A DNA stretch of 64,000 nt from an uncultured Chloroflexia bacterium (GCA_963718915.1 CAVRAI010000003.1:642103-706102), one strand, 5' to 3'. Counted from the stretch's first letter, positions 2,924 through 63,546 are shown. A program made the numbers and translations. Notes: a model not told the origin generated them from the sequence alone.

Positions 2924-3712
2924 ATGGAAGAGCACTCAACTGGCACGGCGCCTCACAAGGTCGAGCATAGATTCCGCGCGCTTTCACGCCCCGCGGACAG
3001 TTTTGGAATCGTCTTGATTCTCCTCGTCCTCGATTACATCGCCGTCTCGGCGATCACTGACAACGCCTGGGGACGAGTCGTCATCGTTGTATTGCTGGGC
3101 GCTACCCTTCTGTTCGCGTTGCATACCTCACATGCTCGTCGTATCTGGCAGCTTCTGGCGGCGCTCTACCTCCTGGTGAGCACGCTGGTCACGGTCGTCA
3201 GCATCCTGGCGCCTGGCGCGACCGATTTTAGCTCGCAGACCTCCCTGGTGGGTGGATTGCTGTTGCTCATTACACCGGTCGCCATTTCGCGCCGCATCGT
3301 TTCGCACCGGTTTGTGACGACCGAGACGGTGCTCGGGGCGATATGTGTGTACTTGTTGATTGGTTTCTCATTCTCATTCATCTACTCGGCGATTGGTTTC
3401 GTGAGCGGCGCCCCCTTCTTCGGAGGCCAAATGCAGGCGACCGCGAACGACTACCTCTTCTTCAGCTACACCACGCTTACCACAGTAGGCTACGGCAATC
3501 TCATACCCGCGGGCAGTGTGGGGCAGACCTTCGCCATGCTCGAAGCGCTTACTGGCCAGATCTATCTGGTAATCGTCGTCGCACGGTTAGTCTCCCTCTG
3601 GGGCCAAGAGCGCCCCTCATCGGCAGTGAGAGGCATGCGCGGCGCGGAAACCAATAACACGCCGCAGGAGCGCGCCCAGTCTCCACAGACTCCCCAACCG
3701 CCAACCGGTTAG
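2924..3712 (+). CDS. Two-TM-type potassium channel family protein
   Basis: ORF 2843..3712. Start preferred at ATG 2924 (GGAGG 5 nt upstream). Selectivity filter TTLTTVGYGNLIP; several TM helices. Confidence 0.8.
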   Translation: MEEHSTGTAPHKVEHRFRALSRPADSFGIVLILLVLDYIAVSAITDNAWGRVVIVVLLGATLLFALHTSHARRIWQLLAALYLLVSTLVTVVSILAPGATDFSSQTSLVGGLLLLITPVAISRRIVSHRFVTTETVLGAICVYLLIGFSFSFIYSAIGFVSGAPFFGGQMQATANDYLFFSYTTLTTVGYGNLIPAGSVGQTFAMLEALTGQIYLVIVVARLVSLWGQERPSSAVRGMRGAETNNTPQERAQSPQTPQPPTG

Positions 3713-3919
3713 CCTTTCGGTGAGGCGCATTCCCCCCATTTGTATGGGCGGTGACTACCCTGCCAGACATACCTTGCGCATGAGGACAAGCCAGACCGCA
3801 CTCTATATGCTTCCCATATGCTTCCCATGTGCGCGCCAAATGCACGCGCGGCGCCAGGCCATGTGCCTGTCACGTCTGGGGTGGCAGTGTGTATGGGGAA
3901 TATGGGGAGAAACGCATCC

Positions 3920-5200
3920 ATGCGAGATTCGAAGAATACCGCGGCTGGGCAGCAACGGCGGCTTCCCTTGCCGAACCTGCGCCTGATTCTCGGTATCGTC
4001 GCCGCCGCGTTCGCGGTCATGCTGGTGTTGCAGGCGATCACTATTGCCGCGCTCACGATGGTGGACAGGCAGCGCAAACGCCGGAGCGCCCCGGCGGCTT
4101 TTCCGCATAGCGAGCTGCCCGAAGTCACCCTCGACGGTAGCTCTTTCCAGATCTACGTCTACGGGCGCGACCTCTACGATGCGATGCTTACCGCCATCGA
4201 TGAGGCTACCGACACCATCTATATGGAAACATTCATCTGGAAGGATGATGAGGCTGGCCAGGAATTCAAGGAGCATCTCGCGCGCAAGGCCGAGCAGGGG
4301 GTCGCGGTCTATGCGGTCTACGATGTCTTCGGCAATCTCGTGGTGCCGCGCGACTTTAAGCAGTTTCCCGCCAACATCCATCTGCTGCGCTACCGTGCCA
4401 TCCATCGCCTGCGCCACCTGCTCATGCCGCGCCGCTATGCCCTCGACCATCGCAAGCTGTTGATCGTGGATGGCCGGATCGCCTTTATCGGCGGCTACAA
4501 CATCGGCAGTCTCTACGCCACCGAATGGCGCGACACCCACCTGCGTATCACCGGGCCAGACGCCGCATTCATCGCCCAGGCGTTCGTCGACTTCTGGAAC
4601 CGGAACGCCCCGCGCTCCGATCTCATCAACAAACGCTACCAGCGACACTACAACGCCGCAATGGGCGTGCGCAGCAATGACGCGATGCGCCTGACATTCC
4701 CCATTCGCGACATGTATCTCAACGGAATCGACGCCGCCGACCGCGACATCCGCCTCACCAGCGCCTATTTTATTCCTGACCACGTCTTGCTGAACTCGCT
4801 CAAAGCGGCGGCGGCCCGTGGGGTGGATGTGCAGGTGCTCGTGCCGTGGACATCGAACCATATCGTCGCCGACTGGGCCTCCCACGCCTACTTCACTGAA
4901 TGCCTGCAAGCGGGCATCCGCATCTTTGGCTATGAGCACGCGATGATTCATGCCAAGACCTGTACCGTGGATGGCGAGCTTACGACCATCGGCACCGCGA
5001 ATATCGACCGGCTCAGCTCCGTTGGCAACTATGAGATCAACGCGGTGATTGTCAACCCGGACGTAGCCAGTCAGATGGAGCGCATCTTCGAGGCCGACAA
5101 ATCGAACGCGTTCGAGCTGACGCTGGAAAAGTGGCGTTCGCGCCCGTGGTACGTCAAAGCAAGCGAGCGGATCATCAAACCACTGCGGTTCGTCCTGTGA
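3920..5200 (+). CDS. cls: Cardiolipin synthase / phospholipase D family protein
   Basis: ORF 3818..5200. The start is uncertain (ATG 3893, 3902 or 3920). N-terminal TM LILGIVAAAFAVMLVLQAITIAAL. Two HKD motifs: HRKLLIVDGRIAFIGGYNIG and HAKTCTVDGELTTIGTANID. Confidence 0.75.
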   Translation: MRDSKNTAAGQQRRLPLPNLRLILGIVAAAFAVMLVLQAITIAALTMVDRQRKRRSAPAAFPHSELPEVTLDGSSFQIYVYGRDLYDAMLTAIDEATDTIYMETFIWKDDEAGQEFKEHLARKAEQGVAVYAVYDVFGNLVVPRDFKQFPANIHLLRYRAIHRLRHLLMPRRYALDHRKLLIVDGRIAFIGGYNIGSLYATEWRDTHLRITGPDAAFIAQAFVDFWNRNAPRSDLINKRYQRHYNAAMGVRSNDAMRLTFPIRDMYLNGIDAADRDIRLTSAYFIPDHVLLNSLKAAAARGVDVQVLVPWTSNHIVADWASHAYFTECLQAGIRIFGYEHAMIHAKTCTVDGELTTIGTANIDRLSSVGNYEINAVIVNPDVASQMERIFEADKSNAFELTLEKWRSRPWYVKASERIIKPLRFVL

Positions 5201-7868: not shown

Positions 7869-7933
7869 CAGCATAGCCGCCGCCCATGCTCGCTACCCCA
7901 TCCGCAGGGTGAGTACGCCGGGCGGGTTTTCCC
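7869..7933. other. Conserved about 65-nt intergenic element, copy 1 (partner at 10757..10820)
   Basis: CAGCATAGCCGCCGCCCATGCTCGCTACCCCATCCGCAGGGTGAGTACGCCGGGCGGGTTTTCCC aligns by eye with the copy at 10757 at roughly 85 percent of positions. Confidence 0.7.
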
Positions 7934-8175
7934 TTATCTTTGTGGGAAGCCACGCAGTAAGCAGGCGGTAGTGGTGGTATGCTCGTATGGCGAGGGTACG
8001 GTGAGGGCAATAGACGTAACAAGACCAGGAGCGCCTGGCACAACCAGTGATAGACTGGAGGCATGAGCATGAGCGCGTACACTCTGGGCCGGGGACGCGA
8101 CCGTGGTATCGGACGGTCGGTTTCGGCGCAATCGGGGTCCATCCGACGACGAGGCGGGCGAGAGGAGCCTGTGCG

Positions 8176-10756: not shown

Positions 10757-10820
10757 CAGCATGAACGACGCCCACGCTCGCTACCCCGTCCGCTGGGTGA
10801 GTCTGCCGGGTGGGTTTCTC
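10757..10820. other. Conserved about 65-nt intergenic element, copy 2
   Basis: CAGCATGAACGACGCCCACGCTCGCTACCCCGTCCGCTGGGTGAGTCTGCCGGGTGGGTTTCTC. See copy 1 at 7869..7933. Confidence 0.7.
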
Positions 10821-11033
10821 ATTACTCCATGCTTAGAGAATGGGTATGGTACCAGCGGCGGCGCATGCTCTCACTCCCCTTATGGCCAGTCGAATACTAT
10901 GCCACTGATCCACCCCGGCGCATGGGGTAACGATGCGATTTTCTGTCTACCTTGATTGCTGACAGCATGGCATTGGCCGCAATGGATGTAGATGTCGCAT
11001 GCTAACATCCTGTTCCTGGGAGGGAGATAGCCT

Positions 11034-20180: not shown

Positions 20181-20289
20181 ATGTCCGCATATGGAGTATA
20201 TGGAGCATATGAAGCATATGGAGCGAGCGCGACGAGCACTGTCTCCGTCGCGCTCTCATGCATTGCCAGTGGTGTGTGGCGGCAGCGGC

Positions 20290-25884: not shown

Positions 25885-26118
25885 CTATGATGAGTAGCGC
25901 CTGGACTCCGATTGGTAGCGGCTGGCTTCACGCAGTTGATACGTCGAGCCAGGCTTGGCTGGCAGAATGGCGCCGATGAGCCAGAGGAACGGCACGAAGA
26001 TGCCGATAATCCCCAGCAACCAATGTCCCTTCTGGAAGGTCATCACACAGACCGTGAATAAGAGGAAGAAGTAGATTACTCCGAACGAAATGGTCAGTAT
26101 CCAATCGAGAGTTGACAT
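25885..26118 (-). CDS. Small two-TM protein (77 aa), paralogue of 28232..28465
   Basis: Inner start ATG 26118 of ORF 25885..26358, with GGAGGAGG upstream. MSTLDWILTISFGVIYFFLLFTVCVMTFQKGHWLLGIIGIFVPFLWLIGAILPAKPGS. Confidence 0.6.
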   Translation of the reverse strand: MSTLDWILTISFGVIYFFLLFTVCVMTFQKGHWLLGIIGIFVPFLWLIGAILPAKPGSTYQLREASRYQSESRRYSS

Positions 26119-26338
26119 ACAGAACCTCCTCCATCGAGACGGGGCACTCCAGCGAACTGGGGTCTCCGTCGGGCGGCCAAACCGCGTAGCTGCGTAGAGA
26201 TGCAACCAGTGTAGCCCCAATCCGCGACATAGAACCCATGCGCAGAGATAGACCTGGCGATGGGTTTTCTTCCTGTCGCAGAGCGTGGAAATGCCTATCC
26301 CTGTGGTGAGGTTGGGTGTATCCCTGTGGCATATCCCG

Positions 26339-27963: not shown

Positions 27964-28231
27964 GTTTTTAGGGGGAGTTGCTTCCTCGCCCCATGGGCAG
28001 CGCCTCGCCCAGGCAAACAGTAGACATGCCGCTCTATGGGGAACTTACCACCTGCGGGTTAGCGGAAATACTGCCCTTCAGGACACTCCTCGCGTGCAGG
28101 GTAAGTGGAATCAACTTGTCATATTCTATGCCCGGCAACTTTGCGCGAGCGTGCCTTAGGGATAGGCCCGGAGGAGCAGTAGAGACATTGGCTGGATCCC
28201 ACCAACAGTTTCGGACAGGAGGCGCTGATCT

Positions 28232-28465
28232 ATGACAACGCTTGATTGGTTTCTCTCCGTGACGTTCATCATGTTGTATTTCTTCATGATTTTCACGGTC
28301 TGTTTCCTGACCTTCCAGAAGGGCCACATCGTGCTGGGGATCGTCGGGATCTTCCTGCCGATCCTCTGGCTCATCGGGGCAATCCTCCCGGCGAAGCGTG
28401 GGTCGCGCTACGAAGCCCAGCAGGCTATGCGCGATCAAGCACAGATTGAAGAAATGACCCGTTGA
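28232..28465 (+). CDS. Small two-TM protein (77 aa), paralogue of 25885..26118
   Basis: ORF 28232..28465 with GGAGG upstream. MTTLDWFLSVTFIMLYFFMIFTVCFLTFQKGHIVLGIVGIFLPILWLIGAILPAKRGS. Confidence 0.65.
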   Translation: MTTLDWFLSVTFIMLYFFMIFTVCFLTFQKGHIVLGIVGIFLPILWLIGAILPAKRGSRYEAQQAMRDQAQIEEMTR

Positions 28466-35562: not shown

Positions 35563-36352
35563 TCAGACGTTGGCTTCCGCCGCCGGTGGCTTTGGTGTCG
35601 GTTGGGTTGGCTGGGTTGGCTGGGTTGGCTGGGGTCGCTGGCCCCAACTAGCGCGCAGAATGTGCAGGCTCACGACGAAGACCCATATCGGCAGGAGAAA
35701 CTCGATCCACGGCGCGAAGTTGATCGTCAGCAACAGGATGAGCGCGCATGTGTATCCGAAGATCGCATACCATCGGGGCAGAAAGGCGGTGCGCACCGCG
35801 AGGGTGGCGGTTGCGATCATGAAGACGCCAGCCATGCGCATCGCATAGATGGTCAGGAAGGAGCCGGTTACCTGAAGCTGGAACTTCCAGACGGCGTTTC
35901 CGGCTGATCCGGGAACGGAGTCTCGCGACGTTCGTCGCCAGGACGCCTCCCACCGCCGCGGACGCGAAGAGCATCGCGATAAACAGCAGTCCACTGCCCA
36001 GGAAGACAGTTGAGAAGAAGCGGTCTTCGCGGTCTCCCAAGTGGTCGCGCACAACTCCGATGAACCAGAGAAACGCGATGCCCGCAAAGGGTATGAGATT
36101 CAGGGCAAGCGCGACGATGTTCCGGTGAAAGGAGTCGGCAAGCCAGGAGCTGAGGTCACGCGAGCTAGCCATGACGGAGAGCCTGATGATGAGCAGGCTA
36201 ATCGAGAGTAGCACCGAGAAGATGATGCCAGCAATCGCGGCCGCGCGTGGCGTCCTGACCGCATGGCGCGCTTCGGGTAGCACCGTACTCACCCCGTCCC
36301 CCTTGTCGTGCATGTCATGCATGTCATGCATGAAGAGATGGTCACCGTACAA
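35563..36352 (-). pseudogene. Multi-TM membrane protein of unknown family, apparent frameshift near 35900-35945
   Basis: ORF 35648..36352 holds the N-terminal TMs up to AAVGGVLA. ORF 35563..36087 holds the C-terminal TMs (SFLTIYAMRMAGVFMIATATLAV...). They are in different frames of one gene. HDM and PTQ tandem repeats sit at the two ends. Confidence 0.5.
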
Positions 36353-37931: not shown

Positions 37932-39000
37932 TGCTAGCTATTGCCTCTCTCCTGCTTTTGCGCTGTCCGGTGCGGCTTCGGTGGCTACCGGTGGCTTCGG
38001 TGGCTTCGGTGGCTTCGGTGGCTTCGGTGGCTTCGGTGGCTTCGGTGGCTTCATCCGCATGAAGGCGCGCTGCCTGCAGGATCGCCGGAATATCCCCGCC
38101 CACCAGCCGCCGCCCCGCGATCCATGAGTTCAGCTCCGCGCCGAGGAGCAGGATGAAGCCGAGATAGTAGAAGAAGATGAGGATCACCACGGCGAATCCC
38201 GCGACGGAGCCGTAGTTGTCTGGCCGCAGGAAGCGGCTCACATAGAGGGGAAAGAGGCTGATGTATGGAACCAGCAGCACCGTGGCGAGCAGCGTCCCCG
38301 GAATAACCTGCCGGAGGCGAATGCGCCGGTTGGGCACGATGAGATAGATGGCGCCGAACAGGATAAACGCGGAGAGCACTGCCACGATATTCCCCAGCAC
38401 GCCAGCGAGCGCCGCCTGACCAGAGTCCGCCAGGTATGGATCGACGAGTCTGACGATGGCCGAGGGCAGCGAGAAGGCCAGCGCGATGAGTGGCGTGAGA
38501 ATGAGATACAGCGCGAGCATGCCAAACGCCATCAGTTGTTTCGGGATCAGATCGCGCCCGCGCACGCGGAAGATGATTCCGAAGCAGGTCTCGATGACCA
38601 TGAACAGGTTCGACCCGCCAAGCACCGACCCCACCAGGCCAATGAGGAAGAGCAGCCCGACATTCGTGGTCAGCTGGTTCGCGACCGCATGAAATATCTC
38701 GGCTCCGCCAGGGATAACCTGTGCAAACACCTGCTCGATATGCGCATAGATGCTGGAAGCATGGTCGCCAAGGATGAGTCCCACGGCAGCGAGCAAGAGG
38801 AGCAAGATCGGGAAGAGCGACATCAGGAGGTTATAAGCCAGCATCCCCGAGAGATTGAAGACCCAATCGTCATTGAGTTTGGTCCAGAAGTCGAGCAGGG
38901 GCTGGATCGTCTTGAGAACGCGCCGCACCAGGCTGAATCGCATCCAGGGCTGTTGTTGTTCCATTGGGTCGGCCTCGTGGAAGCGCTCGCGCGCCGTCAC
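37795..39000 (-). CDS. YihY/BrkB family membrane protein with an (EAT)n repeat tail; the annotated 3' end is probably an artefact of a frame change in the repeat
   Basis: FWTKLNDDWVFNLSGMLAYNLLMSLFPILLLLLA is typical of YihY. The GTG start at 39000 overlaps the upstream protease stop (GTGA). The tail overlaps the convergent AI-2E gene by 137 nt. Confidence 0.8.
   Translation of the reverse strand: MTARERFHEADPMEQQQPWMRFSLVRRVLKTIQPLLDFWTKLNDDWVFNLSGMLAYNLLMSLFPILLLLLAAVGLILGDHASSIYAHIEQVFAQVIPGGAEIFHAVANQLTTNVGLLFLIGLVGSVLGGSNLFMVIETCFGIIFRVRGRDLIPKQLMAFGMLALYLILTPLIALAFSLPSAIVRLVDPYLADSGQAALAGVLGNIVAVLSAFILFGAIYLIVPNRRIRLRQVIPGTLLATVLLVPYISLFPLYVSRFLRPDNYGSVAGFAVVILIFFYYLGFILLLGAELNSWIAGRRLVGGDIPAILQAARLHADEATEATEATEATEATEATEATGSHRSRTGQRKSRREAIASITSPSQVGPPRWHRVARSTRPSSPRREVARRMPTTDGSLAPARAI
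37974..38052. repeat. 9-nt tandem repeat (ggcttcggt), about 8 units, one 10-nt variant unit at 37983-37992
   Basis: Read directly from the sequence. Encodes the EAT repeats of the YihY tail on the minus strand. Confidence 0.9.
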
Positions 39001-40286: not shown

Positions 40287-40321
40287 CATAAGCAATAAGC
40301 AATAAGCAATAAGCAATAAGC
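40287..40321. repeat. 7-nt tandem repeat (aataagc) x5
   Basis: cataagc aataagc aataagc aataagc aataagc, read directly. Lies upstream of the preferred protease start. Confidence 0.9.
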
Positions 40322-53531: not shown

Positions 53532-54107
53532 ATGAGCGATCTGGTTGCCATCACATACCCAGATATCAATCAGGCACAGAAAACACTCGATACGCTGAAG
53601 CGCATGGTGGTTGAGCATCTGCTTGAGCTAGACGATGCCGTCTATGTCACCAAGGATAGTAACGGCGCGGTGGATATGCATCAGATGATTAACCTGCCCG
53701 CGGCGGGCGCGGCGACTGGCGGCGCGACCGGCGCCCTCTGGGGAACGCTGATCGGCCTGCTCTTCCTCTCGCCACTCGCGGGGGCTGCCATTGGGGCAGC
53801 GGTTGGCGCGGGCACGGGCGCCATCGCGGGAAAGATGAGCGACTATGGTATTGACGATAACTTTGTCCAAGACCTGAGCGCCCATATGCCGCCGAATAGC
53901 TCGGCCATCTTCGTCCTGGTGCGCAATGTGACGGTGGATAAGGTGATCCCAGAGATCAGCAAATATGGCGGCACGGTCATGCGTACCTCGCTCTCGGACG
54001 ATGCGGAACAACGCCTTCAGGCAGCGCTCGCGCAACGATCAACCGCTGGGGCGTCGGCCGCCGCAACTCCACCGACAACCACTGACACGCCATCGCAGCC
54101 AGCGTAG
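53532..54107 (+). CDS. DUF1269 domain-containing membrane protein (cassette B)
   Basis: AAGGAGAAG upstream. MSDLVAITYPDINQAQKTLDTLKRM..., Gly-zipper GAATGGATGALWGTLIGLLFLSPLAGAAIGAAVGAGTGAIAG, YGIDDNF...PNSSAIFVLV. Confidence 0.8.
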   Translation: MSDLVAITYPDINQAQKTLDTLKRMVVEHLLELDDAVYVTKDSNGAVDMHQMINLPAAGAATGGATGALWGTLIGLLFLSPLAGAAIGAAVGAGTGAIAGKMSDYGIDDNFVQDLSAHMPPNSSAIFVLVRNVTVDKVIPEISKYGGTVMRTSLSDDAEQRLQAALAQRSTAGASAAATPPTTTDTPSQPA

Positions 54108-55120: not shown

Positions 55121-55216
55121 AAGTATCCAGATGATACTGATTTGGGATAAGGTGTTGTGCTATTACAACGCCGTAGCATGACGCAGGTTTACAAAATAGG
55201 AGGGGCACGCCAGGAG

Positions 55217-55590
55217 GCAGGCGACTGAAGTCGCGCCTGAAGGGCCTGCCTGCTGCGCCTGCTGCGCACGCTCCGCCACAAAACCCGCCTGCGCGGGTTG
55301 CAGAGACGCACTCCCAACGCGTGTCGCGCGCGTGTCGCGCCGGGCAGCGTCTGGCTCTGGGGAGTCCGCGACGGCGGACTTGGTGGCCGCAGGCCCTTCA
55401 GGCGCGGTTTGAACCGCCCGCGCCCCTCCGCGCATGGCCCTCGTACTTTCTAAAACCACATCAGGCTGCGGCGAATGGGGCGGAGCGGCGGGAAATTCGC
55501 CGTAGCGTTCACGCTACGGCCTGCCTCGCCCGCCACGACGTGTGGGGTTCGGACGAAAAAGTGAACGTTCATTACGCTACGGCCAGCATC
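55217..55590 (+). repeat. REP-like multi-hairpin array, copy A
   Basis: Chain of GC-rich stem-loops: GCGAC-tgaa-GTCGC, CCCGC-ctgc-GCGGG, GTCCGC-gacg-GCGGAC, GCGG-tttgaa-CCGC, GGCGAAT...ATTCGCC, CCGTAGCG-ttca-CGCTACGG. Its reverse complement recurs at 61691..61953. Confidence 0.75.
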
Positions 55591-55686
55591 CTCAAACACC
55601 AACCCCAGATGTGGATACTGCGAAAAGCGGGGGCGTGATAGTCTGTCATAATGGCTATCATACCCCCGCTCGGTGATTCGGGCTTT

Positions 55687-57027
55687 CTAGTTCGCGGCAA
55701 GCGGGACGGTGAACCAGAAGGTCGAGCCTTCGCCGGGCACGCTCTCGACGCCAACTTTTCCTCCCATCTGTTCGACCAGCTGGCGACAGATGAACAGGCC
55801 GAGGCCAAGTCCCTCGGCGCTAAATTTGCTGGACCCGCTGGCGCGGTAAAAGCGCTCCCACACACGGGGCTGATGCTCCAGGGCGATACCGACACCATGA
55901 TCGCAGACAGCCACCCGCGCCTCGCCGTCGCCGCGCTCCAGCCGCACCTCGACCGGCTGGACATTTGGTGAATACCTCAGCGCATTGGAGAGATAGTTGC
56001 CGACCACCTGCGCGATGCGATCCGCATCGGCCACGACGGGAATGGCCTCCGTGGGTGATTCCAGATGGATGATTCGTCTGCGCCACACCAGCCGCTGGCC
56101 AGCGACCGTATCATGCAGGATCTCGCTGAGGTCGCAGCGCGACGTATGTGTCTCGGCGATGCCGACGCGAATGCGCGTGATATCGGCAAGATCGGAGAGC
56201 AGGCGCTCTGCCATGTTGGTATTGCGGTCGACGAGCGCGAGAGCCGCCGTGGCGCGCGCCACATGCATCGAGGTAGAGTCGGAGGCCATGCGGCTATCCT
56301 CCACCCGCTTCAGCTGGCGCTGCGCGATCTGTGTGCCCAGTTTCATGGTTGTGAGTGGCCCGCGAAGCTCATGGACGATCTGCATGAGCGCCGCTTCGGT
56401 GTTTTCGCTATCCTGGCGCAGTTGTCCCACCGTGTTCGCCCATGCCTCGCGCTCATACATCAGTCGCCCATGATCGAGCGCCAGCGCGACCAGTTGCGCC
56501 AGCGCGCGTGTCCGCAAGAGAACATCCGGCATGACACGCTTACCAAATCGAAACTCGACGATCAACGCGCCCAGCCGTCGCTCGCTGACCAAGAGCGGCA
56601 GCACGAGCCGGACGATTCTGCGTGTGGTGGAGTCGGGAGAGGCAGGATCATGGGTATCACCTTCCTCCCGAACCGCGTGCAGTCCCGTCGAACGAGAGAT
56701 GGATTCGTTGCCTGCCTCGATTTCGGGGATGTCGGCGCATATCTGATCCCACCAGGCGGATGCGCGGCCCGGCGCAACGCCAGCCGTAGCGATCAAGCGT
56801 GGCCGCCTGGCGCGCGCTGACCTCAAAACGATCCCCACCGTCTCGCTATAGAGGGTATAGCGAACCAGATTGGCAAGCCATGTTGCGAGGCCAGTCTCGT
56901 CACGCCAATCGTCGGCGCCAACCAGTGTTGTCTGGCGAGCATCGGTGGGCACGGCAAAACTTACCGTTCCATGTGCCCATCGTCCCTGGTCTCTTCTCGC
57001 ATGCATACCACACCTCCCGGGGTTCAT
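55687..57027 (-). CDS. Cytoplasmic sensor histidine kinase (GAF-like N-domain, HisKA, HATPase_c)
   Basis: H-box [12 protein letters not shown]-box [11 protein letters not shown]-boxes DHGVGI and [18 protein letters not shown]. No TM segment seen. Confidence 0.85.
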
Positions 57028-57338
57028 TAGTTGAGGGTTCGTTCAGCGCGCACTGTCTGCGGTAAACGCGCGCGGGAGACGCATCACGGCGCTCAATGAG
57101 GATGCGCCCGACGGTTTCTCCTGCTGTGCAGCCAGGGCCTGTCGCTCCAGCGTGTGTAACGTCAACTGAAGGGAGGCTCCTGCCGCACTGCTCACTCTAA
57201 AACGAGAATCCCTGCGCCGCATGCAACAAAGGTTGCAAAAATGAAGTGGCAAGTTTTGTGAGAATACCCCTTATGGTGATGCGGTTTTGTATGATAAAGT
57301 ACAGATTGCAGCCTATTCGTCGTAGGAAAACAGCCTGT

Positions 57339-57367
57339 TTGTATGTGTTAACAGGATCAACATACAA
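57339..57367. promoter_or_regulatory. Candidate operator: inverted repeat TTGTATGT-N13-ACATACAA in an AT-rich divergent intergenic region
   Basis: Read directly. Lies between the kinase (minus strand) and the response regulator (plus strand), in the most AT-rich stretch of this part of the window. Confidence 0.3.
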
Positions 57368-57580
57368 CCATCTTAACAACTTGCTTCCTGTATCTGTGCA
57401 TCGCGCTCTCAGGCCAGAAGATAGCAAATGGTATACATGGGGAAATGCTCGACAGGCGGGTGTGATCGCACAAGGCGTTGTAGGGGTGTAGGTGTGTAGG
57501 TGTATGCAGGAGGAAGACTGTGTATCAAGCGCCGCGAAGGTGTAGCTGATAGTTGCGGCCTGCGTGCGTTTGACGTTCCC

Positions 57581-57647
57581 CGATAACAGCGCGATAACAG
57601 CGTGGCATATCTGGCGTATCTGGCATCTTTGGCATCTTTGGCATCTT
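57581..57647. repeat. Two adjacent tandem repeats: 11-nt (cgataacagcg) x2 and 9-nt (tggcatctt-like) x5
   Basis: Read directly. About 200 nt upstream of the response-regulator start. Confidence 0.85.
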
Positions 57648-57849
57648 TAGCAAGAGTCAGGGGCGGTGCGGGCGGACGTGCGTCTGGGTATTGGCGATCC
57701 CGCGAGGCCGAGCGGAGGGATCATTTGGTGTGCGAGAGCGGCTTCATCGAACGCTTGCGGTTGGAAGAGGCTCACACACGCGCTCAAATGAGTTCGGTAC
57801 GCGGAACAGGGATCATCGCGACAGTGCCCCACCACGAAAGAGGCGAACG

Positions 57850-58503
57850 ATGGTGAGAATCCTGGTGGCGGAAGACCATGAAGTCATGCGGCGCGGTCTG
57901 CGTGATCTGCTCCTGGAGCACCAGGGATGGGAGGTGTGCGGGGAGGCGCGCAATGGGCGTGATGCGCTCGATCTCGCCGTCCAGTTACGCCCCGACGTCG
58001 CCGTCGTGGATATCTCCATGCCAATACTCAGCGGCCTGGAGGCTACACGCCACATTCGCCAGCAATCTCCTGATACGGAGGTGCTCATTTTTACCCAGTA
58101 CGAGAGCGGCCAGTACGTTCAAGAGGCGTTGCGTGTCGGCGCACAGGGATATATCCTCAAGTCCGACGCGGCGCTACACCTGACCGAAGCGGTAGAGGCG
58201 CTGGCCAGACACGAGCCGTTCTTCTCGCCGGGCATCTCGAAAACGATCCTGAATACGTTCCTGAACTCGGAAGAGCAGAAGCGTGATGAGGTTGCGTTAT
58301 CCACGCTCACGACGCGCGAGCGTGAGGTGATGCTGATGCTCGCCTCGGGTAAAAGGAATCGTGATGTGGCCGATGAGCTGTACATTGCCCCAGGTACTGT
58401 CATCACGTATCGTGCTAAAATCATGAAAAAGCTGGGGGTGTCTTCCATTGCCGGGGTGATCCTCTTTGCCGCGCGGAACAACCTCATCGTATTCCAACGA
58501 TAG
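57850..58503 (+). CDS. NarL/FixJ-family response regulator (REC + LuxR-type HTH)
   Basis: Inner start ATG 57850 of ORF 57691..58503. MVRILVAEDHEVMRRGL...DVAVVDISMP. HTH LTTREREVMLMLASGKRNRDVADELYIAPGTVITYRAKIMKKLG. Confidence 0.9.
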   Translation: MVRILVAEDHEVMRRGLRDLLLEHQGWEVCGEARNGRDALDLAVQLRPDVAVVDISMPILSGLEATRHIRQQSPDTEVLIFTQYESGQYVQEALRVGAQGYILKSDAALHLTEAVEALARHEPFFSPGISKTILNTFLNSEEQKRDEVALSTLTTREREVMLMLASGKRNRDVADELYIAPGTVITYRAKIMKKLGVSSIAGVILFAARNNLIVFQR

Positions 58504-59192
58504 GCAATGTACGCGATATGGCGTAGAAACCATGTGAAACGGGCATCTTTGCATACAGTGATTATCGACATAAAATACTACAAAAGCTGTATACAAAGTC
58601 CCATCGACTGGTGCTATAGTACTGGTGTGCTCAAAACGCACCGATACCTTTGTGCAAGGGCATCGTCGCTCCTCCGTCGAATGGCTAATGTACCTGATAC
58701 TACAGTGTGTCATACGACAATGCGTCCAATGCCTTAGTCCTACCAGTTAACCCCCTCTCAGGGCGCAGTTCTGTGCGTTCACGTACCATCTTCAGGTACC
58801 CCTGGGAGAGATGCACAGGTCCTTGCAAAGTGTCCTGGATCTGCCACACCGCGTGGCAAACGTAGCACAAGAGCCTGGAGAGTTCTTCCCGATCTTCCTT
58901 GTGACAGGACGGATCCCAACAATTACCAGGAACTGGGATGGAAGACGGGATAGGATATAAGCGGTGATTGCCTCGCTGCCCGTACGGCAAAGAGATGCTG
59001 AGGGATGTGGTAATGCATCCCTGAACATTGGCGAGGCGCTCATTGTGGCGGCATGGCGCACGTCGTTGCACCCCGGCAAGCCGACGTGGCGGAGCCGACA
59101 CTGCCGCGATGCTAGTGCGGCGCTTCACGAGCGCCCTAGCTGCTGACTCTCCTCTCAGGAATCTCCGCATTACCCAAGGGAGGAGACGATCC

Positions 59193-61538
59193 ATGGGTAT
59201 CCCTCTCGTCACAGTTCGGCATGGGCTTGTGAGCGTGTCGATGGACATTGGCTCCGCTGAATGGTTCACCTTGCTCGATAGGATCGACATTTTTGCCGTT
59301 GAGGCACACGATATCTCGTTCCTCGTGCGACGCATGCATGATGGAGCGTTCGCGCTCTGGCTGGCCTTTTGCTCGATTGACAATGACCCACGCTGTGTTG
59401 TGGTGGGTTCGGCGTCGGAACTCACGCGAGAGCGGCTGCTGACGGCAGCGCACCAGCTCGCGAATTGGGATACGGTCACTCCCGAATTTCAGGTAGAGCT
59501 GGAGCGAGAAAGCGCGCCTATGCCGCAGCTGTCTGTCACCAGCCCGGATCTCCTCGTGACCAAGTTAGAGATGCCTACCGTCACCAGCAGGACGCTGGTT
59601 CGCACACAAGCCATTGACCGCATGGCGCGCGCGCTGGATTATCCTCTCACCGTCGTCAACTCGCCTTCTGGCTATGGCAAGACGACCCTCGTGGCAGCAT
59701 GGGCGAGCGAGACCCCTGCGCGGGTGGCTTGGTTGCTGCTGGATGAGAACGACAACGACCCGGTGCGCTTCTCCACCCATCTGCTCGCCGCTCTCGACCG
59801 GGTTGTCCCTGGTCTGCTTACCGCGGTACTACCCTATGTGCAGAACGCGCAGACGCATCTCTCTGATGGATCGCTCATCTCCCGGCTCATTAATTCACTG
59901 ACCTCGACTGATGGTCACATTGCCCTCGTGCTCGATGGGTACCATACGATCAGTCAAGACAATGCGGTGATCCAGAACGCGATGAACTACTTCATCGAAA
60001 ACCTGCCACCCCACGTCCATGTCATCGTCCTGACTCGTACCAGCGTCCCCTTGCGCCTCCCATGGTTGCGCGTTGCCGGGCGGCTGTTTGAATTGCGCAT
60101 TGATGACCTGCGCTTCACGGAAGACGAAGCGCGCGTATTTCTGGAGCGACGGACAGGCTCGGACGTAGCGCCTGAGGTCAGCGCGCGCATTCACCGACGC
60201 ACTGAGGGCTGGGTGGCTGGGCTGCAGCTTGCCGCGTTCGCGCTCGAAGATTCGCGCACTCCCGCGGAAAATGTGGCAGACCTCCTGAGTGAGAATCGCA
60301 ATGTCGTCGATTTCATCGCGGAGGAGGTGCTCACGCGACTGCCGCATGCGGTCAGCGAGAATGTCTTGTGGATGGCCGCACTGGACCGGTTCAACGTGGC
60401 GCTCTGCGACGCGCTGCCAGGGATCGTGGACAGCCAGACGACGCTGGAGACCCTCGAGCGCGAAAACGCATTCCTCGTCCCGGTCGATGACCCCTCCGGC
60501 TGGTACAGGTTCCATAGACTCTTCCGGGAGGTGCTCTGGAAGCGGCTTCAACGGACGCACAAAGAAGAGTTGGCCGAGATGCATCGCCAGGTGAGCGCCT
60601 GGTATGAAGCCCATGGCATGACGCGCGATGCGGTTCACTATGCGTTGCATGCGAGCGATGAGCACGCGGTTCTGCGCATCGTTCGTGAACTTGCCAATCG
60701 TGTCTTCGAGAGCGGATCCTCCCCGTCCGACCTCCGGGCACTGGCGCAATGCCTTGATCTTCTGCCCGCGGACATGATACAGAAGCATCCGCAGCTCTGT
60801 CTGATTGAAGCGCAGATGTTCGTACAATCAGGCGATCTCGACGAGGCCGAACTGTGGCTGGAAGCCGCCGATACGCATATCTCTCAGGATATGACAGTGG
60901 ATGGCGAGACAGCTGCATCAGGCGACCATATGCGTATGCGGGACGAGATCATGCAGGTTCGGGGCATCATCGCGCGACTGCGCAAGGGAAGCCCTCCCGC
61001 CGATGGCTGGCAGTCAGCCCTGATGCACGCGCCGCACGCATCGCATTCATCGCATGCGTGGGAGCCTCAAGCCGCCATGTTGTCCACACTGTCCATATCG
61101 TCCGTATCGTCCGTGCCACCGCGCGCGCAACGCATGCCCCAGCGTACCGATGCGCACCATTCCTCCACCGTTCCTGGACCTCTGGTCATTTACGAGCGAG
61201 TCACCGCGCGCGAAAAGGAGGTTCTGGTGCTGCTCGCCAAAGGCGAACCCAATCAGGTGATCGCTGACGATCTCACCATCGCCGTCGCGACGGTCAAGCG
61301 CCATCTGAGCAACCTCTACCGCAAGTTACAGGTGGATAACCGGACTCAGGCGGTGTGGCGAGCCTGGACCCTTGGCCTGCTCGACGACCTTCCTGCCGAT
61401 GGCGCGGATACATTGGCGCCTCATAGCGACCGGACTAAGCCGGACGAGCGCGGTGCGGGTATGAGTATGCCTCGGTGGAATAACTTCCCCAACAGCAATG
61501 GCAACGGCAATCTTCCCCCTGGCATCACGCCGGGATAG
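59193..61538 (+). CDS. Large LuxR-family regulator (MalT/LAL-like: unknown N-domain, P-loop NTPase, helical repeats, LuxR HTH)
   Basis: ORF 59028..61538, start preferred at ATG 59193 (GGGAGGAG upstream). Walker A NSPSGYGKTTL. C-terminal LTAREKEVLVLLAKGEPNQVIADDLTIAVATVKRHLSNLYRKL. Confidence 0.85.
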   Translation: MGIPLVTVRHGLVSVSMDIGSAEWFTLLDRIDIFAVEAHDISFLVRRMHDGAFALWLAFCSIDNDPRCVVVGSASELTRERLLTAAHQLANWDTVTPEFQVELERESAPMPQLSVTSPDLLVTKLEMPTVTSRTLVRTQAIDRMARALDYPLTVVNSPSGYGKTTLVAAWASETPARVAWLLLDENDNDPVRFSTHLLAALDRVVPGLLTAVLPYVQNAQTHLSDGSLISRLINSLTSTDGHIALVLDGYHTISQDNAVIQNAMNYFIENLPPHVHVIVLTRTSVPLRLPWLRVAGRLFELRIDDLRFTEDEARVFLERRTGSDVAPEVSARIHRRTEGWVAGLQLAAFALEDSRTPAENVADLLSENRNVVDFIAEEVLTRLPHAVSENVLWMAALDRFNVALCDALPGIVDSQTTLETLERENAFLVPVDDPSGWYRFHRLFREVLWKRLQRTHKEELAEMHRQVSAWYEAHGMTRDAVHYALHASDEHAVLRIVRELANRVFESGSSPSDLRALAQCLDLLPADMIQKHPQLCLIEAQMFVQSGDLDEAELWLEAADTHISQDMTVDGETAASGDHMRMRDEIMQVRGIIARLRKGSPPADGWQSALMHAPHASHSSHAWEPQAAMLSTLSISSVSSVPPRAQRMPQRTDAHHSSTVPGPLVIYERVTAREKEVLVLLAKGEPNQVIADDLTIAVATVKRHLSNLYRKLQVDNRTQAVWRAWTLGLLDDLPADGADTLAPHSDRTKPDERGAGMSMPRWNNFPNSNGNGNLPPGITPG

Positions 61539-61690
61539 CCTGGGCGCCGCCCGCTGGCTATCCCGGTTGGCGCGGAATCTCTCGCAGCGTTTCTCGCATC
61601 GCCAGGCTGAGCCAATGGCAGGCTCCGTACGTCAGGTCACGAGCATGAGTCATACCAATTCCGGCTGGGTTGTTGTATGTGGGGAGCGTG

Positions 61691-61953
61691 CCGGAAGCCC
61701 AATGTAGTTTTAGAAAGCACCAGGGACACGGGCTGGGCAGCGCGGGCGGTTCAAACCGCGCCTGTGGGGCCTGCGGCCACCAAGTCCGCCGTCGCGGACT
61801 CCCAGACCGTGTCCCAACGCGCTCCCCGTTGGCGAGCGGTTCTGGGCAACCCGCGCAGGCGGGTGTCGTGGCGGAGCAGGTGCAGCAGGCGGAGCAGGCG
61901 CAGCAGGCGAGGCGCAGCAGGCGAGGCCCTTCAGGCGCGACTTCAGTCGCCAG
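61691..61953 (-). repeat. REP-like multi-hairpin array, copy B (inverted relative to copy A)
   Basis: The reverse complement aligns with 55217-55465, sharing blocks such as ggcgactgaagtcgcgcctgaagggcc and gagtccgcgacggcggacttggtggccgcaggcc...caggcgcggtttgaaccgcccgcg. Confidence 0.75.
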
Positions 61954-61975
61954 CCGCCGTGGCGGTCCGTCGTAA

Positions 61976-63108
61976 TTAACGTGAGTTCGGGATAACTACA
62001 GGGTAACATGAACGGGCATCTCCTGCTCTTGGACGAGGGAGGGTTTCTTGGGTTGGCGGCAGTAGGCGACCAATCCGGCGAAGAGATGCACGAGGAAGTT
62101 GAGCGGGCTGCGGTGGCGGGTATGCTCAATCTGGCAGATGTTCTTGAGTTGGTCGTTGATGCTCTCAATGATCGCCCGTTTGCGGAGCAGGAGTTTGTCG
62201 GCCAGGGGCATGAGCACATGGCGCATATTTTTGCGCAGTTTGGTAATGAGGCGCAGGCGCTGAGTGAGCAAGAGCTGCTCAGCGAGCGCTGCTCAGCGAG
62301 CGCTGCTCAGCGAGCGCCGCCGAGATGTAGCCTTTGGTAGCCTTTGTCGGCGAAGAGGCGGCCGAAGAGGCGACCGAAGAGGCGGACCGAAGAGGCGGCC
62401 GAAGAGGCGATGCGTGCCACGCACCAAGCGTGGCACAGGCTGACGGTCATCGACGTTGCCGGGGGAAGACAAAACGCCAGCAGTTCGCCGCGGTCGTTGA
62501 CCACCAGATGCAGTTTGAAGCCGAAGAACCAGCCCACCGAGGTCTTGCCCCGCCGGGCATCCACGCGAAAGACCCGATGCTGGTGGATGCGCGCCGGGTG
62601 ACAGACCGCGAGGGCCGTCGAGTCAATGAAGCTGACACGAAGCTGACACCGGTGCAGGTTCCACATTGCGTGCGCAGGTAGACGGCGAGCGGAAGGAGGA
62701 CTCGCGGCAGCAATTCGATGCAGCAATTCGATGCAGCGATTCGATGCAGCGATTGTAGCTCACGAGGTGCGGAAACTCCCGGCGCAGATGCACCTGCACA
62801 TACTCAGTATAGAACGCTTTGTATAGAACGCTTTGAAGGTGCGGTAGCCCGACTGCTGCAAGAGGATCGCGATGGTCATAATTTCACTGGGATGCAGCCG
62901 GGTCGCGCGTCGACGACGGCGCGTCCCCGAGACGAGCAACTCGCGCTCCCACCACGGCTCAAAGACCTGCCAGAACGCATCCACGGAGCAGTACAAGGCG
63001 TCCAGGTCGAGTATACTCATGACATGCCTCCATTCAGGGACTGACGGGGTGTCGTAAACCGCATCATATCTCTGTTGAAGGCATTTCGCTTATCCCGAAC
63101 TCACGTTA
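61976..63108 (-). mobile_element. IS982-family insertion sequence, decayed (transposase in at least 3 frames, riddled with tandem duplications)
   Basis: Terminal inverted repeats taacgtgagttcgggataa (61976-61994) and ttatcccgaactcacgtta (63090-63108). Transposase fragments are ORFs 62760..63020 (MSILDLDALYCSVDAFWQVF...SEIMTIAILLQQSGYRTFKAFY), 62307..62726 (FIDSTALAVCHPARI...GWFFGFKLHLVVNDRGELL...LFADKGY) and 61996..62271 ([26 protein letters not shown]). Confidence 0.8.
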
Positions 63109-63185
63109 TTTAGTAAAACGACATAAGGCCCCGGCGAATGGGGATGGAAATTCGCCGTAGCGTTCACGCTACGGCCTGCCTTCCG
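63109..63185 (+). repeat. REP-like array, partial copy C (matches 55445-55525 of copy A, same orientation)
   Basis: tttagtaaaacgacataaggccccggcgaatggggatggaaattcgccgtagcgttcacgctacggcctgcc compared with tttctaaaaccacatcaggctgcggcgaatgggg...ggaaattcgccgtagcgttcacgctacggcctgcc. Confidence 0.6.
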
Positions 63186-63546
63186 TATGACAACAGTCCA
63201 ACCGGATGGAGTATCAGGAGGATAGCGCGACGATTTGCTCAGGCGCGGATGCTCATGTGGCTTTCTACAACTTTTGGCCCATGCGTCTGACGCGGTTGTA
63301 TAGTCTCGTTAGGTTCTAGATGGTGTAGCGCGTAGCGTTGGATGGAGGTGAGCGCGAGAGTAGCGCATATCGCGATGGCGCAGTAGTAGGAGGTGAACCG
63401 TTTTGCGACTCCTGAATCGCATCACGTTCCATGAATCGTATCAGCACTATAGGAAGTCCGTTGCCCTTGCTATACGTCAAAAGATTCAGGGGATATCCCT
63501 GAGTCAGTTGCGTCGTTCCGCGAAAGACGTGGCGGCGAGCCATTCC

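Follow-up and report, generated by a model that had tools for sequence, protein, structure and literature searches.

Two hairpin-rich repeats, A and B, lie in the 64,000-nt stretch of DNA from an uncultured Chloroflexia bacterium that was analysed here (the window), on either side of genes encoding a histidine kinase (minus strand), a Response_reg and GerE domain regulator (plus strand) and a MalT/LuxR-type regulator (plus strand). The cores of A (55214-55424) and B (61739-61957) are in opposite orientation and share approximately 85% identity over approximately 250 nt. Alignment of A with the reverse complement of B gave three collinear blocks, namely 55360-55467 with 61696-61803 (108 nt, 87%), 55248-55313 with 61834-61899 (66 nt, 83%) and 55194-55247 with 61924-61977 (54 nt, 80%), and the two repeats have identical runs of 37, 28 and 25 nt. 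Exact 36- and 27-mers common to A and B occurred twice each, as against none in 100 dinucleotide shuffles, and these results together confirmed the inverted, hairpin-rich repeats of approximately 250 nt described in the initial annotation. The hairpins of A and B are genuine; folded as single-stranded DNA, core A gave a z score of -3.6 and core B one of -1.6. A sequence search and a covariance-model scan with filters off found no further copies of A or B in the 64-kb window. A and B are each made up of exactly two convergent copies of a unit, designated U, and the 64 kb is otherwise free of units. We also agree with the initial annotation that no IS200/IS605-related Y1 transposase gene is present inside the window.

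Organisation of A and B

A had been delimited as 55217-55590, and while the repeat is real, this interval lumps together a core unit pair, outer inverted arms and a separate module, V. The outer left arm (GCCGTAGC..GGTTTACAAAATAGGAGGGGC; 55170-55213, plus strand) corresponds in inverted orientation to 55425-55469, shows homology with outer arm GATGAAGTTTTAGAAAATAGGACGAGC of an element at locus L018 and aligns with the arm of B that is split by an insertion sequence (IS). It is followed by the left U (55214-55301, plus strand; 59.9-65.7 bits with the covariance model R1, E approximately 1e-12), in which hairpin H1 is GGCGACTGAAGTCGC, hairpin H2 is ACCCGCCTGCGCGGGT and the middle is enlarged by the tandem repeat GCCTGCTGC. 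A variable central spacer (55302-55358), with an 11-nt tandem duplication at 55318-55340 (Tandem Repeats Finder), leads to the inverted right U (55359-55424, minus strand; R1 71.7 bits, E 2.5e-15), which is composed of H1 (GGCGGTTCAAACCGC), a middle hairpin (GGCCTGCGGCC) and H2 (GTCCGCCGTCGCGGAC) and forms a 33-nt inverted repeat with 55217-55249. The outer right arm (..CTCGTACTTTCTAAAACCACATCAGGCTGC; 55425-55469, plus strand), common to the left end of B and to the supposed third copy, C, has its GTTTTAGAAA-type motif on the minus strand, and both outer inverted arms of A carry this motif. Module V (55470-55526, plus strand) comprises a GGCGAAT..ATTCGCC hairpin and the perfect palindrome GCCGTAGCGTTCACGCTACGGC, followed by CTGCC. 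The tetranucleotide GTAG is present in module V only, within a stem, and V is separate from U; R1 gave no match to V, nor was V found among 116 foreign loci. A related arm piece occurs 3' of module V, at 55561-55583.

In B, an outer arm (AATGTAGTTTTAGAAAGCACC..; 61693-61738, plus strand), assigned by alignment to A, precedes the first U (GTTCAAAC arm; 61739-61804, plus strand; R1 69.9 bits, E 6.5e-15), a central spacer (61805-61843) placed by the A/B alignment and the family spacer survey, and the inverted U (ACTGAAGT arm; 61844-61957, minus strand; R1 46 bits). The last appeared as two partial matches in the filters-off scan of the window, and its middle is swollen by tandem 9-, 14- and 18-nt repeats at 61870-61937 (Tandem Repeats Finder). 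The proximal part of the second outer arm (61958-61978, plus strand) ends in TAATTA, a candidate 6-bp target duplication, and is followed by an IS982-like insertion sequence with a decayed transposase (61979-63106, minus strand), recognised by an inverted repeat of 23 nt (96%; 61973-61995 and 63090-63112, a match that takes in the flanking 6-mers) and by DDE_Tnp_1_3 fragments of 100.7 and 75.4 bits. This element contains six frame-breaking tandem duplications, none of them present in a homologue at locus L088. Beyond it lie the distal part of the arm (TATTTAGTAAAACGACATAAGGCC; 63107-63132, plus strand), assigned by arm alignment and forming the start of C, and a second copy of module V (63133-63181, plus strand), assigned by its identity to V on the A side. 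Positions 55491-55526 and 63146-63181 are 100% identical over 36 nt, and 55444-55480 and 63107-63143 match at 81%.

When the IS was taken out, the reverse complement of B and C combined aligned with A 55188-55467 across the junction unbroken, and omission of one copy of the 6-mer raised the alignment score to A from 250 to 261. Thus, as B and C read through collinear with A and a 6-bp duplication is left, the IS inserted into a pre-existing element. What had been taken for a third partial copy is actually the outer arm of B, severed by the IS982-like insertion, and then the second module V.

A family of U units in other genomes

U is 57-70 nt long and consists of H1 (GGCG-NN-TGAA-NN-CGC), GCCTG, an optional middle hairpin, CGAAG and H2. 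In a doublet the arms face each other, with H1 outer and H2 inner, and the single strand can fold either as local hairpins or, REPIN-like, as one long hairpin, which is how core A folds. A degenerate 20-nt H1 pattern was used to scan for further copies, and R1 was then run on the resulting loci, of which there were more than 116. Among the matches listed, R1 identified approximately 190 U units at approximately 100 loci in Chloroflexota, Armatimonadota, Myxococcota and Gemmatimonadota; many further copies of the repeat are present in other genomes. Forty-seven pairs were convergent (111-280 bp) and none divergent, tandem arrays were few, and the spacing of paired units across the family ranged from unit overlap up to 148 nt. 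Ten 8-kb blocks of one metagenome-assembled genome, CAVPBB01, together carried at least 26 units. The GTTTTAGAAA outer arms were seen in a single genome besides the window, that of the L018 element.

The stems of U covary strongly: 96.7% of cells were paired as against approximately 35% in slid controls, and compensatory changes were found in five of the seven H2 pairs. The hairpins are therefore structurally conserved among copies, and the description of the repeats as similar in style to REP/BIME elements holds for these palindromic elements and their inverted doublets. Neither GTAG nor CGTC was conserved at the ends of U in the unit alignment and flanks, and no target-site duplication was readable in 44 flank pairs. 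The units are mostly intergenic and are rarer between divergent genes (9/74 compared with 63/322 background spacers), the family favouring co-directional and convergent spacers.

Hairpins as RNA or as DNA

The hairpins of A and B are strong, and these repeats could be imagined to act as RNA, as 3'-UTR stabilisers, terminators or structured non-coding RNA kept for that role. A is situated in the 3' region of a SHOCT operon and precedes a hairpin (55628-55672) also conserved among relatives, and is thus probably co-transcribed, while the spacer preference of the U family is that of REPs (PMC3733652). However, wobble pairs in the U stems were symmetrical, with 27 G.T (G.U in RNA) and 25 A.C among 2219 cells, such that both strands are equally palindromic, which points to the U structure acting as DNA rather than RNA. 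Single units, moreover, were not consistently oriented with respect to the adjoining gene, and together the lack of wobble strand bias and of orientation bias speaks against the family having been selected for a role as RNA. A and B themselves face opposite ways with respect to the genes upstream of them and are missing from the orthologous spacers of relatives, the folding of B is no better than that of shuffled sequence, and no U-tract terminators were found. No Rfam family matched at its gathering score, the best sub-threshold match being CRISPR-DR28 (25.9 compared with 35 bits), which covered the H2 hairpin only. A role for A and B as RNA is, on this evidence, unlikely.

Gene order around A and B

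In six related Ktedonobacterales contigs, from relatives at approximately 70% protein identity, A was absent with gene order and orientation unchanged, and B was absent from all five of these contigs that extend to the LuxR spacer. No U unit was found in the syntenic loci L001-L004, L133 and L135, or at L121 in the 127 nt past the LuxR stop that its sequence covers. As the relatives have the same order with neither A nor B, the two repeats represent independent insertions into two intergenic spacers, although the relatives are too diverged for an exact insertion boundary or target-site duplication of A or B to be defined against them. The window therefore contains no inversion relative to the ancestral order. 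The initial annotation had stressed that A and B flank exactly the kinase and regulator block, to which we can attach no functional meaning, since relatives keep this gene order with neither element; the enclosure of the two-component module is incidental, and the inverted orientation is a 50% outcome.

The same comparison bears on the suggestion of a recombination switch, with A and B as its arms, that inverts the 6-kb segment. Inverted repeats of approximately 250 nt with the identical runs noted above could allow rare homologous recombination, but the order and orientation of the segment equal those of every relative without the repeats, and no recombinase gene lies inside or beside it. A and B are only approximately 85% identical overall, with indels, the U family occurs elsewhere as scattered single insertions, and inversion would produce no obvious promoter swap, all of which renders a switch very improbable. 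Least credible is an origin of A and B as by-products of the IS982-like element, which B and C adjoin on either side, or of local segmental duplication, given that this IS entered a pre-existing element, that A has no IS nearby, that blastn matched none of A, B and C within the 8-kb locus of the L088 IS homologue, whose nearest unit lies approximately 3.7 kb off, and that the U family occurs in hundreds of places without IS982. Compared with a classical DDE-type MITE, A and B do have inverted arms; no DDE element has those arms, and the ends of the adjacent IS982-like element are unrelated.

Association of U with a Y1 transposase

At one locus (L112), an ORF matching Y1_Tnp (76 bits) was found with U units on both sides. 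Seven more homologues were chosen by protein similarity alone, and R1 matches were present beside the gene in every case, such that U units directly flank a gene for a Y1/HUH transposase of approximately 140 aa at 8/8 independent loci, one of them cyanobacterial. This linkage was seen for Chloroflexota and one cyanobacterium, and not for the units of Myxococcota, Armatimonadota or Gemmatimonadota. The cleanest case, L126, has U on the plus strand at 2918-2980, the gene at 3001-3438 and U on the minus strand at 3456-3524; the cyanobacterial locus, from Coleofasciculus, has the same layout, and at L126, L131 and L132 the element ends are inverted copies of U. In 924 kb of DNA selected for its units, approximately 190 units were counted but only one Y1 gene, and clusters of homologues comprised 1-4 members on 1-3 contigs.

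The protein carries HVH and Y-x3-Q-x2-HH motifs, with H55/H57, Y116, Q120 and H124 invariant among 22 homologues and H123 at least 90% conserved. It matched the NCBIfam model transpos_IS200 (63.2 bits, cut-off 55), its closest solved structures are the IS200, IS608 and ISDra2 TnpA proteins, and no TnpA_REP was matched among PDB structures at E<=1. Together with a score of 21.7 bits for REP_Tyr_transpos (cut-off 80), this placed it outside the canonical RAYT/TnpA_REP clade (class 2). With its HUH and Y-x3-Q-x2-HH motifs, short core and low copy number, it is instead a protein of TnpA_Y1 subclass 1.2 as defined by Quentin et al. 2018 (PMC6006769). The idea that an IS200/IS605-related transposase belongs with such repeats was thus borne out in so far as a Y1 gene is flanked by units at all eight loci, but the enzyme is not a canonical RAYT and the units have no GTAG tag.

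Probable origin of A and B

We consider it probable that A and B arose by separate insertions of a palindromic mobile element and are copies without a gene, REPIN-like and non-autonomous, of a REPtron-like system. By analogy with the biochemistry of IS200/IS605 TnpA and TnpA_REP, the Y1 transposase would bind hairpins folded in single-stranded DNA, such as that at a replication fork, and would cleave beside them, the prime candidate site being the invariant GCGCCTG 3' of H1 with its CT dinucleotide; it would then move or copy gene-less doublets in trans. Such a model covers the core units, while the outer arms and module V fall outside it. One doublet would have inserted in the SHOCT-to-kinase spacer and the other in the LuxR-to-MASE1-kinase spacer, both from a sub-family with additional outer arms bearing the GTTTTAGAAA motif, and B would have been hit later by the IS982-like element, itself now decayed. 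From their approximately 15% divergence and the tandem inflation of B, both copies may be old and immobile.

More tentatively, and at a little less than even chances, the IS200-like TnpA_Y1 subclass 1.2 could have in U a DNA partner that had so far gone unrecognised, the two forming an ancient REPIN/RAYT-like system, a further independent pairing of a low-copy Y1 enzyme with dispersed hairpins beside class-2 RAYT/REP and class 3. If so, the sequence of its recognition module would have been kept between Cyanobacteria and Chloroflexota, and the unit, not yet with a linked gene, occurs also in Armatimonadota, Myxococcota and Gemmatimonadota. This would supply a concrete candidate DNA substrate, H1-GCCTG...CGAAG-H2, for a Y1 subclass previously described as devoid of recognisable end structures. 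REPIN-like populations are, moreover, common in large soil genomes beyond the Proteobacteria, and the conservation of the unit across phyla, unusual for REP-type repeats, hints at tight protein-DNA co-constraint or horizontal spread. For the window itself the outcome is deflationary: the bracket arose by chance from two insertions of mobile elements, with nothing to indicate a regulatory cassette or inversion switch around the two-component module. The covariance model lets annotators mask or label such GC-rich intergenic blocks.

Comparison with known systems

Among the closest parallels are the REPtrons, REP/REPIN sequences with their RAYT (TnpA_REP) (Nunvar 2010; Bertels & Rainey 2011; Ton-Hoang 2012; PMC5581495, PMC8266576). 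As in REPtrons, extragenic palindromic units occur as singles, inverted doublets and clusters, a doublet can form one long hairpin, units lie in inverted orientation around a low-copy Y1/HUH transposase gene, repeats far outnumber transposase genes, compensatory change maintains the stems, and co-directional or convergent spacers are preferred. In contrast, U has two or three hairpins in 57-70 nt while a REP is one hairpin of 20-40 nt, U has no GTAG (or CGTC) foot, the linked protein is IS200-like with no match to solved TnpA_REP, and the sequence of U is kept from one phylum to another, REPs being usually confined to a species or genus.

The TnpA_Y1 proteins of subclass 1.2 (PMC6006769) share the Y-x3-Q-x2-HH motif, the length of approximately 140 aa, the low copy number, the proximity to IS200 TnpA and the presence in Cyanobacteria; here, however, all sampled genes are flanked by complex hairpin units, and the genes are abundant in Chloroflexota. 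TIRtrons/TIRYT (Di Nocera 2013, PMC3733652) and TnpA_Y1 class 3 (Quentin 2018, PMC6006769) likewise have Y1 genes within long inverted repeats or 'atypical secondary structures' of dispersed repeat families, one example having approximately 600 repeat copies in Solibacter usitatus (PMC3733652; Quentin 2018). TIRYTs, however, are class-2.1 proteins with HTH extensions and GGGGWSAS in the inverted repeats, and class 3 has Y-x4-Q and a CnGA foot, all absent here.

IS200/IS605 elements and their gene-less PATEs resemble the present system in transposase fold and motifs, in single-strand 'peel and paste' chemistry on hairpins, which is likely here by analogy, and in the existence of deletion derivatives retaining only the ends. 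IS200/IS605 elements lack inverted terminal repeats, both of their sub-terminal hairpins lying on one strand, and they are autonomous, occurring in multiple copies that include the gene. The present system has inverted ends and far fewer genes than repeats, which sets it outside IS200/IS605.

REP dimers nested in longer palindromes have been described for A. variabilis GTAG-15 and H. neapolitanus CGTC-1 (PMC3733652), and the cores of A, B and the L018 element similarly lie inside a longer unrelated inverted repeat, that of the GTTTTAGAAA arms, with other sequences and in other host phyla. The reading of A and B as REPIN-like elements is ordinary for the window, and the system departs only modestly from known REPIN/RAYT-like systems.

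Structure of the inverted repeats A and B

The initial annotation had described two hairpin-rich elements, A and B, as inverted REP-like repeats, and this observation is real. Alignment of A with the reverse complement of B gave three collinear blocks, of 108 nt (87%), 66 nt (83%) and 54 nt (80%), and the two elements share exact 36- and 27-mers, each present twice in the window and in none of 100 dinucleotide-preserving shuffles. No further copies of A or B were found in the 64-kb window by repeat search or by a covariance-model scan with filters off. Between A and B lie genes for a histidine kinase (-), a receiver+GerE regulator (+) and a MalT/LuxR-type regulator (+), and upstream of this block are those for DUF1269, DUF6325 and Q-rich SHOCT proteins.

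A contains a 33-nt inverted repeat (55217-55249 / 55389-55421), and comparison with relatives from other genomes revealed that each of its arms is one copy of a 57-70-nt unit, termed U. The unit consists of a hairpin H1, (G)C-Y-GGCG-NN-TGAA-NN-CGC, followed by GCCTG, an optional middle hairpin (often GGCC-TGC(G)-GGCC), C-R-A-A-R, a second hairpin H2, A/G-N-CCGCC-TGCG-CGG-N-T, and GGG. A scan with R1, a covariance model of U, found exactly four units in the window, at 55214-55301 (+) and 55359-55424 (-) in core A and at 61739-61804 (+) and 61844-61957 (-) in core B; in both cores the paired units face each other with H1 outermost. Two arm types are common to A and B, one with the H1 sequence ACTGAAGT and a long middle part, the other with the H1 sequences GTTCAAAC and GGCCTGCGGCC, and because the identical two types occur in both, A and B are members of a single polar sub-family that lie in opposite orientation. 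Folded as ssDNA, core A forms a single long hairpin from which the H2 stems branch off sideways (-71 kcal/mol, z = -3.6). The corresponding z for core B is -1.6, and its left-hand unit is enlarged by 9/14/18-nt tandem repeats (61870-61937).

Outer arms, the interrupted end of B and module V

The core is surrounded by inverted outer arms carrying the motif GTTTTAGAAA/TTTCTAAAAC, which occurs at 55456 (-), 61707 (+) and 63119 (-); beyond the window, this motif flanks a unit pair only in the foreign locus L018, where it is found at either side of the element. When the IS982-like insertion sequence inside B (61979-63106) was deleted, the reverse complement of the joined flanks (61660-61972 + 63107-63260) aligned to A (55188-55467) across the junction, and dropping one copy of a 6-mer (TAATTA/TATTTA) at this point raised the alignment score from 250 to 261. 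IS-free B and the adjoining sequence near 63109-63185, C, are collinear with A through the junction, and therefore the start of C is the second outer arm of B, severed by an insertion that apparently made a ~6-bp duplication. C had been taken for a third partial copy of the repeat; its first part is this arm, and its remainder (63133-63181) is a distinct palindromic module, V, also present after the right arm of A (55470-55526), with related fragments at 55170-55192 and 55561-55583. V comprises a GGCGAAT...ATTCGCC hairpin and a perfect 22-nt palindrome, GCCGTAGCGTTCACGCTACGGC, followed by CTGCC. Its two copies are 100% identical over 36 nt (63146-63181 and 55491-55526), whereas the adjoining elements are only ~85% alike, and an exact 30-mer common to A and C occurs twice in the window and in none of 100 dinucleotide-preserving shuffles. 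V was not matched by the unit model and was absent from the 116 foreign loci searched; GTAG occurs within V, which may represent a GTAG-type REP repeat of the source genome in its own right.

Distribution and structure of the U family

A degenerate 20-mer spanning H1 and GCCTG matched more than 116 eight-kb blocks of species-representative genomes, a lower bound, and about a dozen chance matches were removed from this set. Among the matches listed, U blocks came from Ktedonobacterales, other Chloroflexota (MAGs labelled Chloroflexia, Thermomicrobiales, Anaerolineae, Thermoflexales and Chloroflexales), Armatimonadota (Chthonomonadales and Capsulimonas), Myxococcales and Longimicrobium, and R1, built on 66 units, recovered ~190 units, so that further copies do exist in other genomes. 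Standard pairs filled 96.7% of cells in the seed alignment, as against 31-39% when the partners were slid, and five of the seven H2 pairs showed changes on both sides; the search pattern had imposed no constraint on H2 or the middle hairpin. The hairpin structure is thus conserved among copies.

The arrangement of the units is strongly non-random, with 47 convergent pairs (111-280 bp), three tandem arrays and otherwise single units among the matches listed, and no divergent pairs except at abutting elements. Sub-families are lineage-specific; units of Myxococcales, for example, have no middle hairpin and always combine a GCTGAAGC arm with a ACTGAAGT arm. This lineage specificity speaks for within-genome amplification rather than for contaminated bins. 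The elements are mainly intergenic, in 42 co-directional, 23 convergent and 9 divergent spacers versus 182:77:63 for background spacers, these being rough counts from an iterated codon-usage caller that replaced a too-crude GC3-based calling; by the same rough calls, single units had no consistent orientation to the neighbouring gene. GTAG immediately precedes the element in 5 of 44 pairs (L083 4233, L018 7596, L050 237, L033 4694 and L103 4310), and may be the TAG stop of the upstream gene, a vestigial REP-like foot or a favoured target.

A strand-specific RNA structure tolerates G.U but not A.C, the latter being the wobble of the other strand. In 149 distinct units aligned to R1, 86 of 2219 cells were non-Watson-Crick, and the wobbles were symmetrical, with 27 G.T versus 25 A.C. 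Against Rfam, neither the full window, searched at gathering score, nor A or a canonical element, searched at E<=10, gave more than sub-threshold noise. The symmetrical wobbles and the lack of an Rfam family fit a palindrome that acts at the DNA level. The resemblance to a hammerhead (CUGA...stem...GAA...stem) fails since the 'G12' position varies in the alignment (CGAAG, ACAAA, CCAAG) and the three hairpins of U follow one another in series and form no three-way junction. A CRISPR was likewise rejected: the 63-nt tandem array of L052 consists of contiguous units without spacers, and a match to CRISPR-DR28 covers the H2 hairpin only. Integron attC sites were dismissed for want of R''/R' core sites and of GTT in H1 variants such as ACTGAAGT, and a phage-borne repeat was ruled out as IMG/VR viral contigs held only two true units.

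Association of U with a Y1 transposase

When ORFs around the units were clustered, the recurrent neighbours were limited to housekeeping genes, genes with TIR domains and a few for TnpB; the clustering overlooked, because it is rare, an IS200-type HUH tyrosine transposase of TnpA_Y1 subclass 1.2 (Y1), which an IS200 probe then detected as one ORF (L112 6005-6442, -) in 924 kb of unit-selected DNA. Pfam assigns its product to Y1_Tnp (76 bits), and in NCBIfam it scored 63 bits for transpos_IS200 (cut-off 55) and 21.7 bits for REP_Tyr_transpos (cut-off 80). The Y1 start is preceded, at a distance of 32 nt, by a unit pair, and the degenerate partner of another unit, at the 3' end, overlaps the stop of the gene.

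Further Y1 homologues were picked by protein similarity and the length of their contigs, not by units, and then scanned with R1, and units adjoin the Y1 gene in every homologue locus scanned. In L126 the gene (3001-3438) lies between U(+) 2918-2980 and U(-) 3456-3524; in L123 a pair ends 54 nt upstream and a unit lies 56 nt downstream, and in L128 a pair follows 7 nt downstream. Units flank the gene on both sides in L129 (Anaerolineae) and, together with tandem H1-like arrays, in L122. In L131 (Thermomicrobiales) U(+) lies 48 nt upstream and U(-) overlaps the stop, and in the cyanobacterium Coleofasciculus (L132) U(+), ending 5 nt before the start, and U(-), 184 nt past the stop, have the H1 GGCGATGGAAATCGC and the H2 CCCGCCTTCGCGGG. 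Off the Y1 genes, these loci hold one other element only (L126 ~4964-5155). The long arrays of L122 are built of half-units, namely an 18-nt repeat, GGCGATTTTAATCCGCCG, present ~13 times upstream of Y1 (2720-2990), and a 48-nt repeat with an H2-like CACCCGCGAAG, present ~5 times downstream (3540-3760); they suggest local amplification of putative transposase-binding hairpins.

The Y1 proteins share the motifs HVH and Y-x3-Q-x2-HH, and their nearest solved structures are IS200-type TnpAs (Sulfolobus, ISDra2 and IS608), TnpA_REP being absent from the solved-structure matches. A profile search placed more than 5,600 clusters in the family at E<=1e-10, with named members from Ktedonobacterales, Thermomicrobiales, Anaerolineae and cyanobacteria. 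The proposed link to an IS200/IS605-related RAYT therefore holds in part: a Y1 gene flanked by U exists in other genomes, but its protein falls outside the RAYT clade.

A and B as insertions in the regulator locus

The source of the window is a Ktedonobacterales genome, and four contigs from relatives, at ~70% protein identity, carry the order trypsin(-), DUF1269(+), DUF6325(+), SHOCT(+), kinase(-), regulator(+), MalT/LuxR(+) and MASE1-PAS kinase(+), identical in order and orientation to the window. The unit model found no U in these contigs, nor in two more orthologous spacers (L133 and L135) from a metagenome scan. The SHOCT-to-kinase spacer measures ~100 bp in the relatives and 567 bp in the window, and that between LuxR and the next gene 449 bp and ~750 bp without the IS; the relatives and the spacers of L133 and L135 are too diverged from the window for insertion boundaries to be defined. 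As the same order and orientation exist without U, A and B are lineage-specific insertions in two spacers. The synteny comparison thus speaks against A and B as a frame for the kinase/regulator module, whose 'exact bracketing' becomes uninformative, and also against an inversion device, since the enclosed segment has not been inverted. In the window itself, A and B amount to two unremarkable and probably old insertions of a mobile element, one of which was later struck by an IS.

The SHOCT-kinase spacer of L133 and L135 holds a different palindrome, CCCCCTCCCTCTTTAGGGGAGGGGG and variants, of a type that adjoins U elsewhere (L075 ~330-400, L078 ~7880-7930), and this spacer seems to attract palindromic elements. 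A long hairpin, GCGGGGGCGTGATAGTCTGTCATAATGGCTATCATACCCCCGC (55628-55672), lies just past the 3' end of the histidine kinase gene and is kept in all relatives of the locus (L001 3075-3125, L133, L135); A sits upstream of it, and it is probably a native bidirectional terminator or regulatory hairpin.

Other repeats in the window

The window is very rich in short, perfect tandem duplications with periods of 7-15 nt and 2-9 copies; ~24 arrays of TRF score >=44 lie outside the IS, among them 37974-38052, 40288-40321, 20187-20224, 57603-57652 and 35603-35641. The 1.1-kb IS982-like element itself (61979-63106) contains six, all frame-breaking and missing from the homologue in L088, which leave its transposase as a pseudogene. 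The same tendency is seen in related contigs (L121 2600-2650; L122 2720-2990 and 3540-3760; L123 3545-3580), and the prevailing periods in genes are 9, 12 and 15 nt; tandem duplication looks like a lineage-wide mutational mode, filtered by selection in genes.

Paralogous DUF1269 cassettes, with following genes, lie at both window ends (2189-2770 and 53532-54107); their direct DNA similarity is 73% (2270-2314 / 53613-53657), and their downstream partners differ, an ion-channel protein in one and DUF6325 + SHOCT in the other. A 188-nt inverted repeat, 74% complementary (25945-26132 / 28218-28405), flanks a fragmented MFS transporter region; as the arm at 25945-26132 resembles the CDS of a small membrane protein, the two arms may belong to paralogous genes in inverted orientation instead of being the termini of a transposon. 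At 7869-7936 and 10757-10824, a direct repeat of 68 nt (81%) has a GC-rich hairpin and a T-run at its end (..GCCGGGCGGGTTTTCCC..), and is possibly a leader or terminator common to two paralogous genes.

Proposed mechanism and relation to known systems

U is a conserved DNA palindrome module present as inverted terminal repeats on either side of a Y1 gene, and gene-less doublets far outnumber the genes and differ in presence between related genomes. By analogy with IS200/IS605 TnpA and TnpA_REP, the Y1 enzyme would bind the folded hairpins in ssDNA and cut beside them, and its strand transfer could move doublets in trans (PMC8266576). TnpA_REP enzymes cut at a CT dinucleotide (PMC8266576). The GCGCCTG after H1 is invariant and includes CT, and our guess from this parallel is that it might be the cleavage region.

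We found no description of U sequences in the literature, also when searching by sequence strings, although coverage was incomplete and an earlier description is possible. The REP-like character of the repeats is borne out by a palindromic family that works much like a REPtron with its REPINs, and the U/Y1 system resembles both the TIRtrons (Di Nocera et al.) and the class 3 systems (Quentin et al.). REP dimers nested in longer palindromes are already known and provide a precedent for the outer arms of A and B. In contrast to canonical REP/RAYT, however, U has no GTAG foot, is multi-hairpin and much longer, and its protein is not in the RAYT clade, while unlike in standard IS200/IS605 elements the U ends are inverted and the Y1 gene is rare. 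The U family is thus a modestly novel variation on the REP/RAYT theme, and merits a short specialist note.
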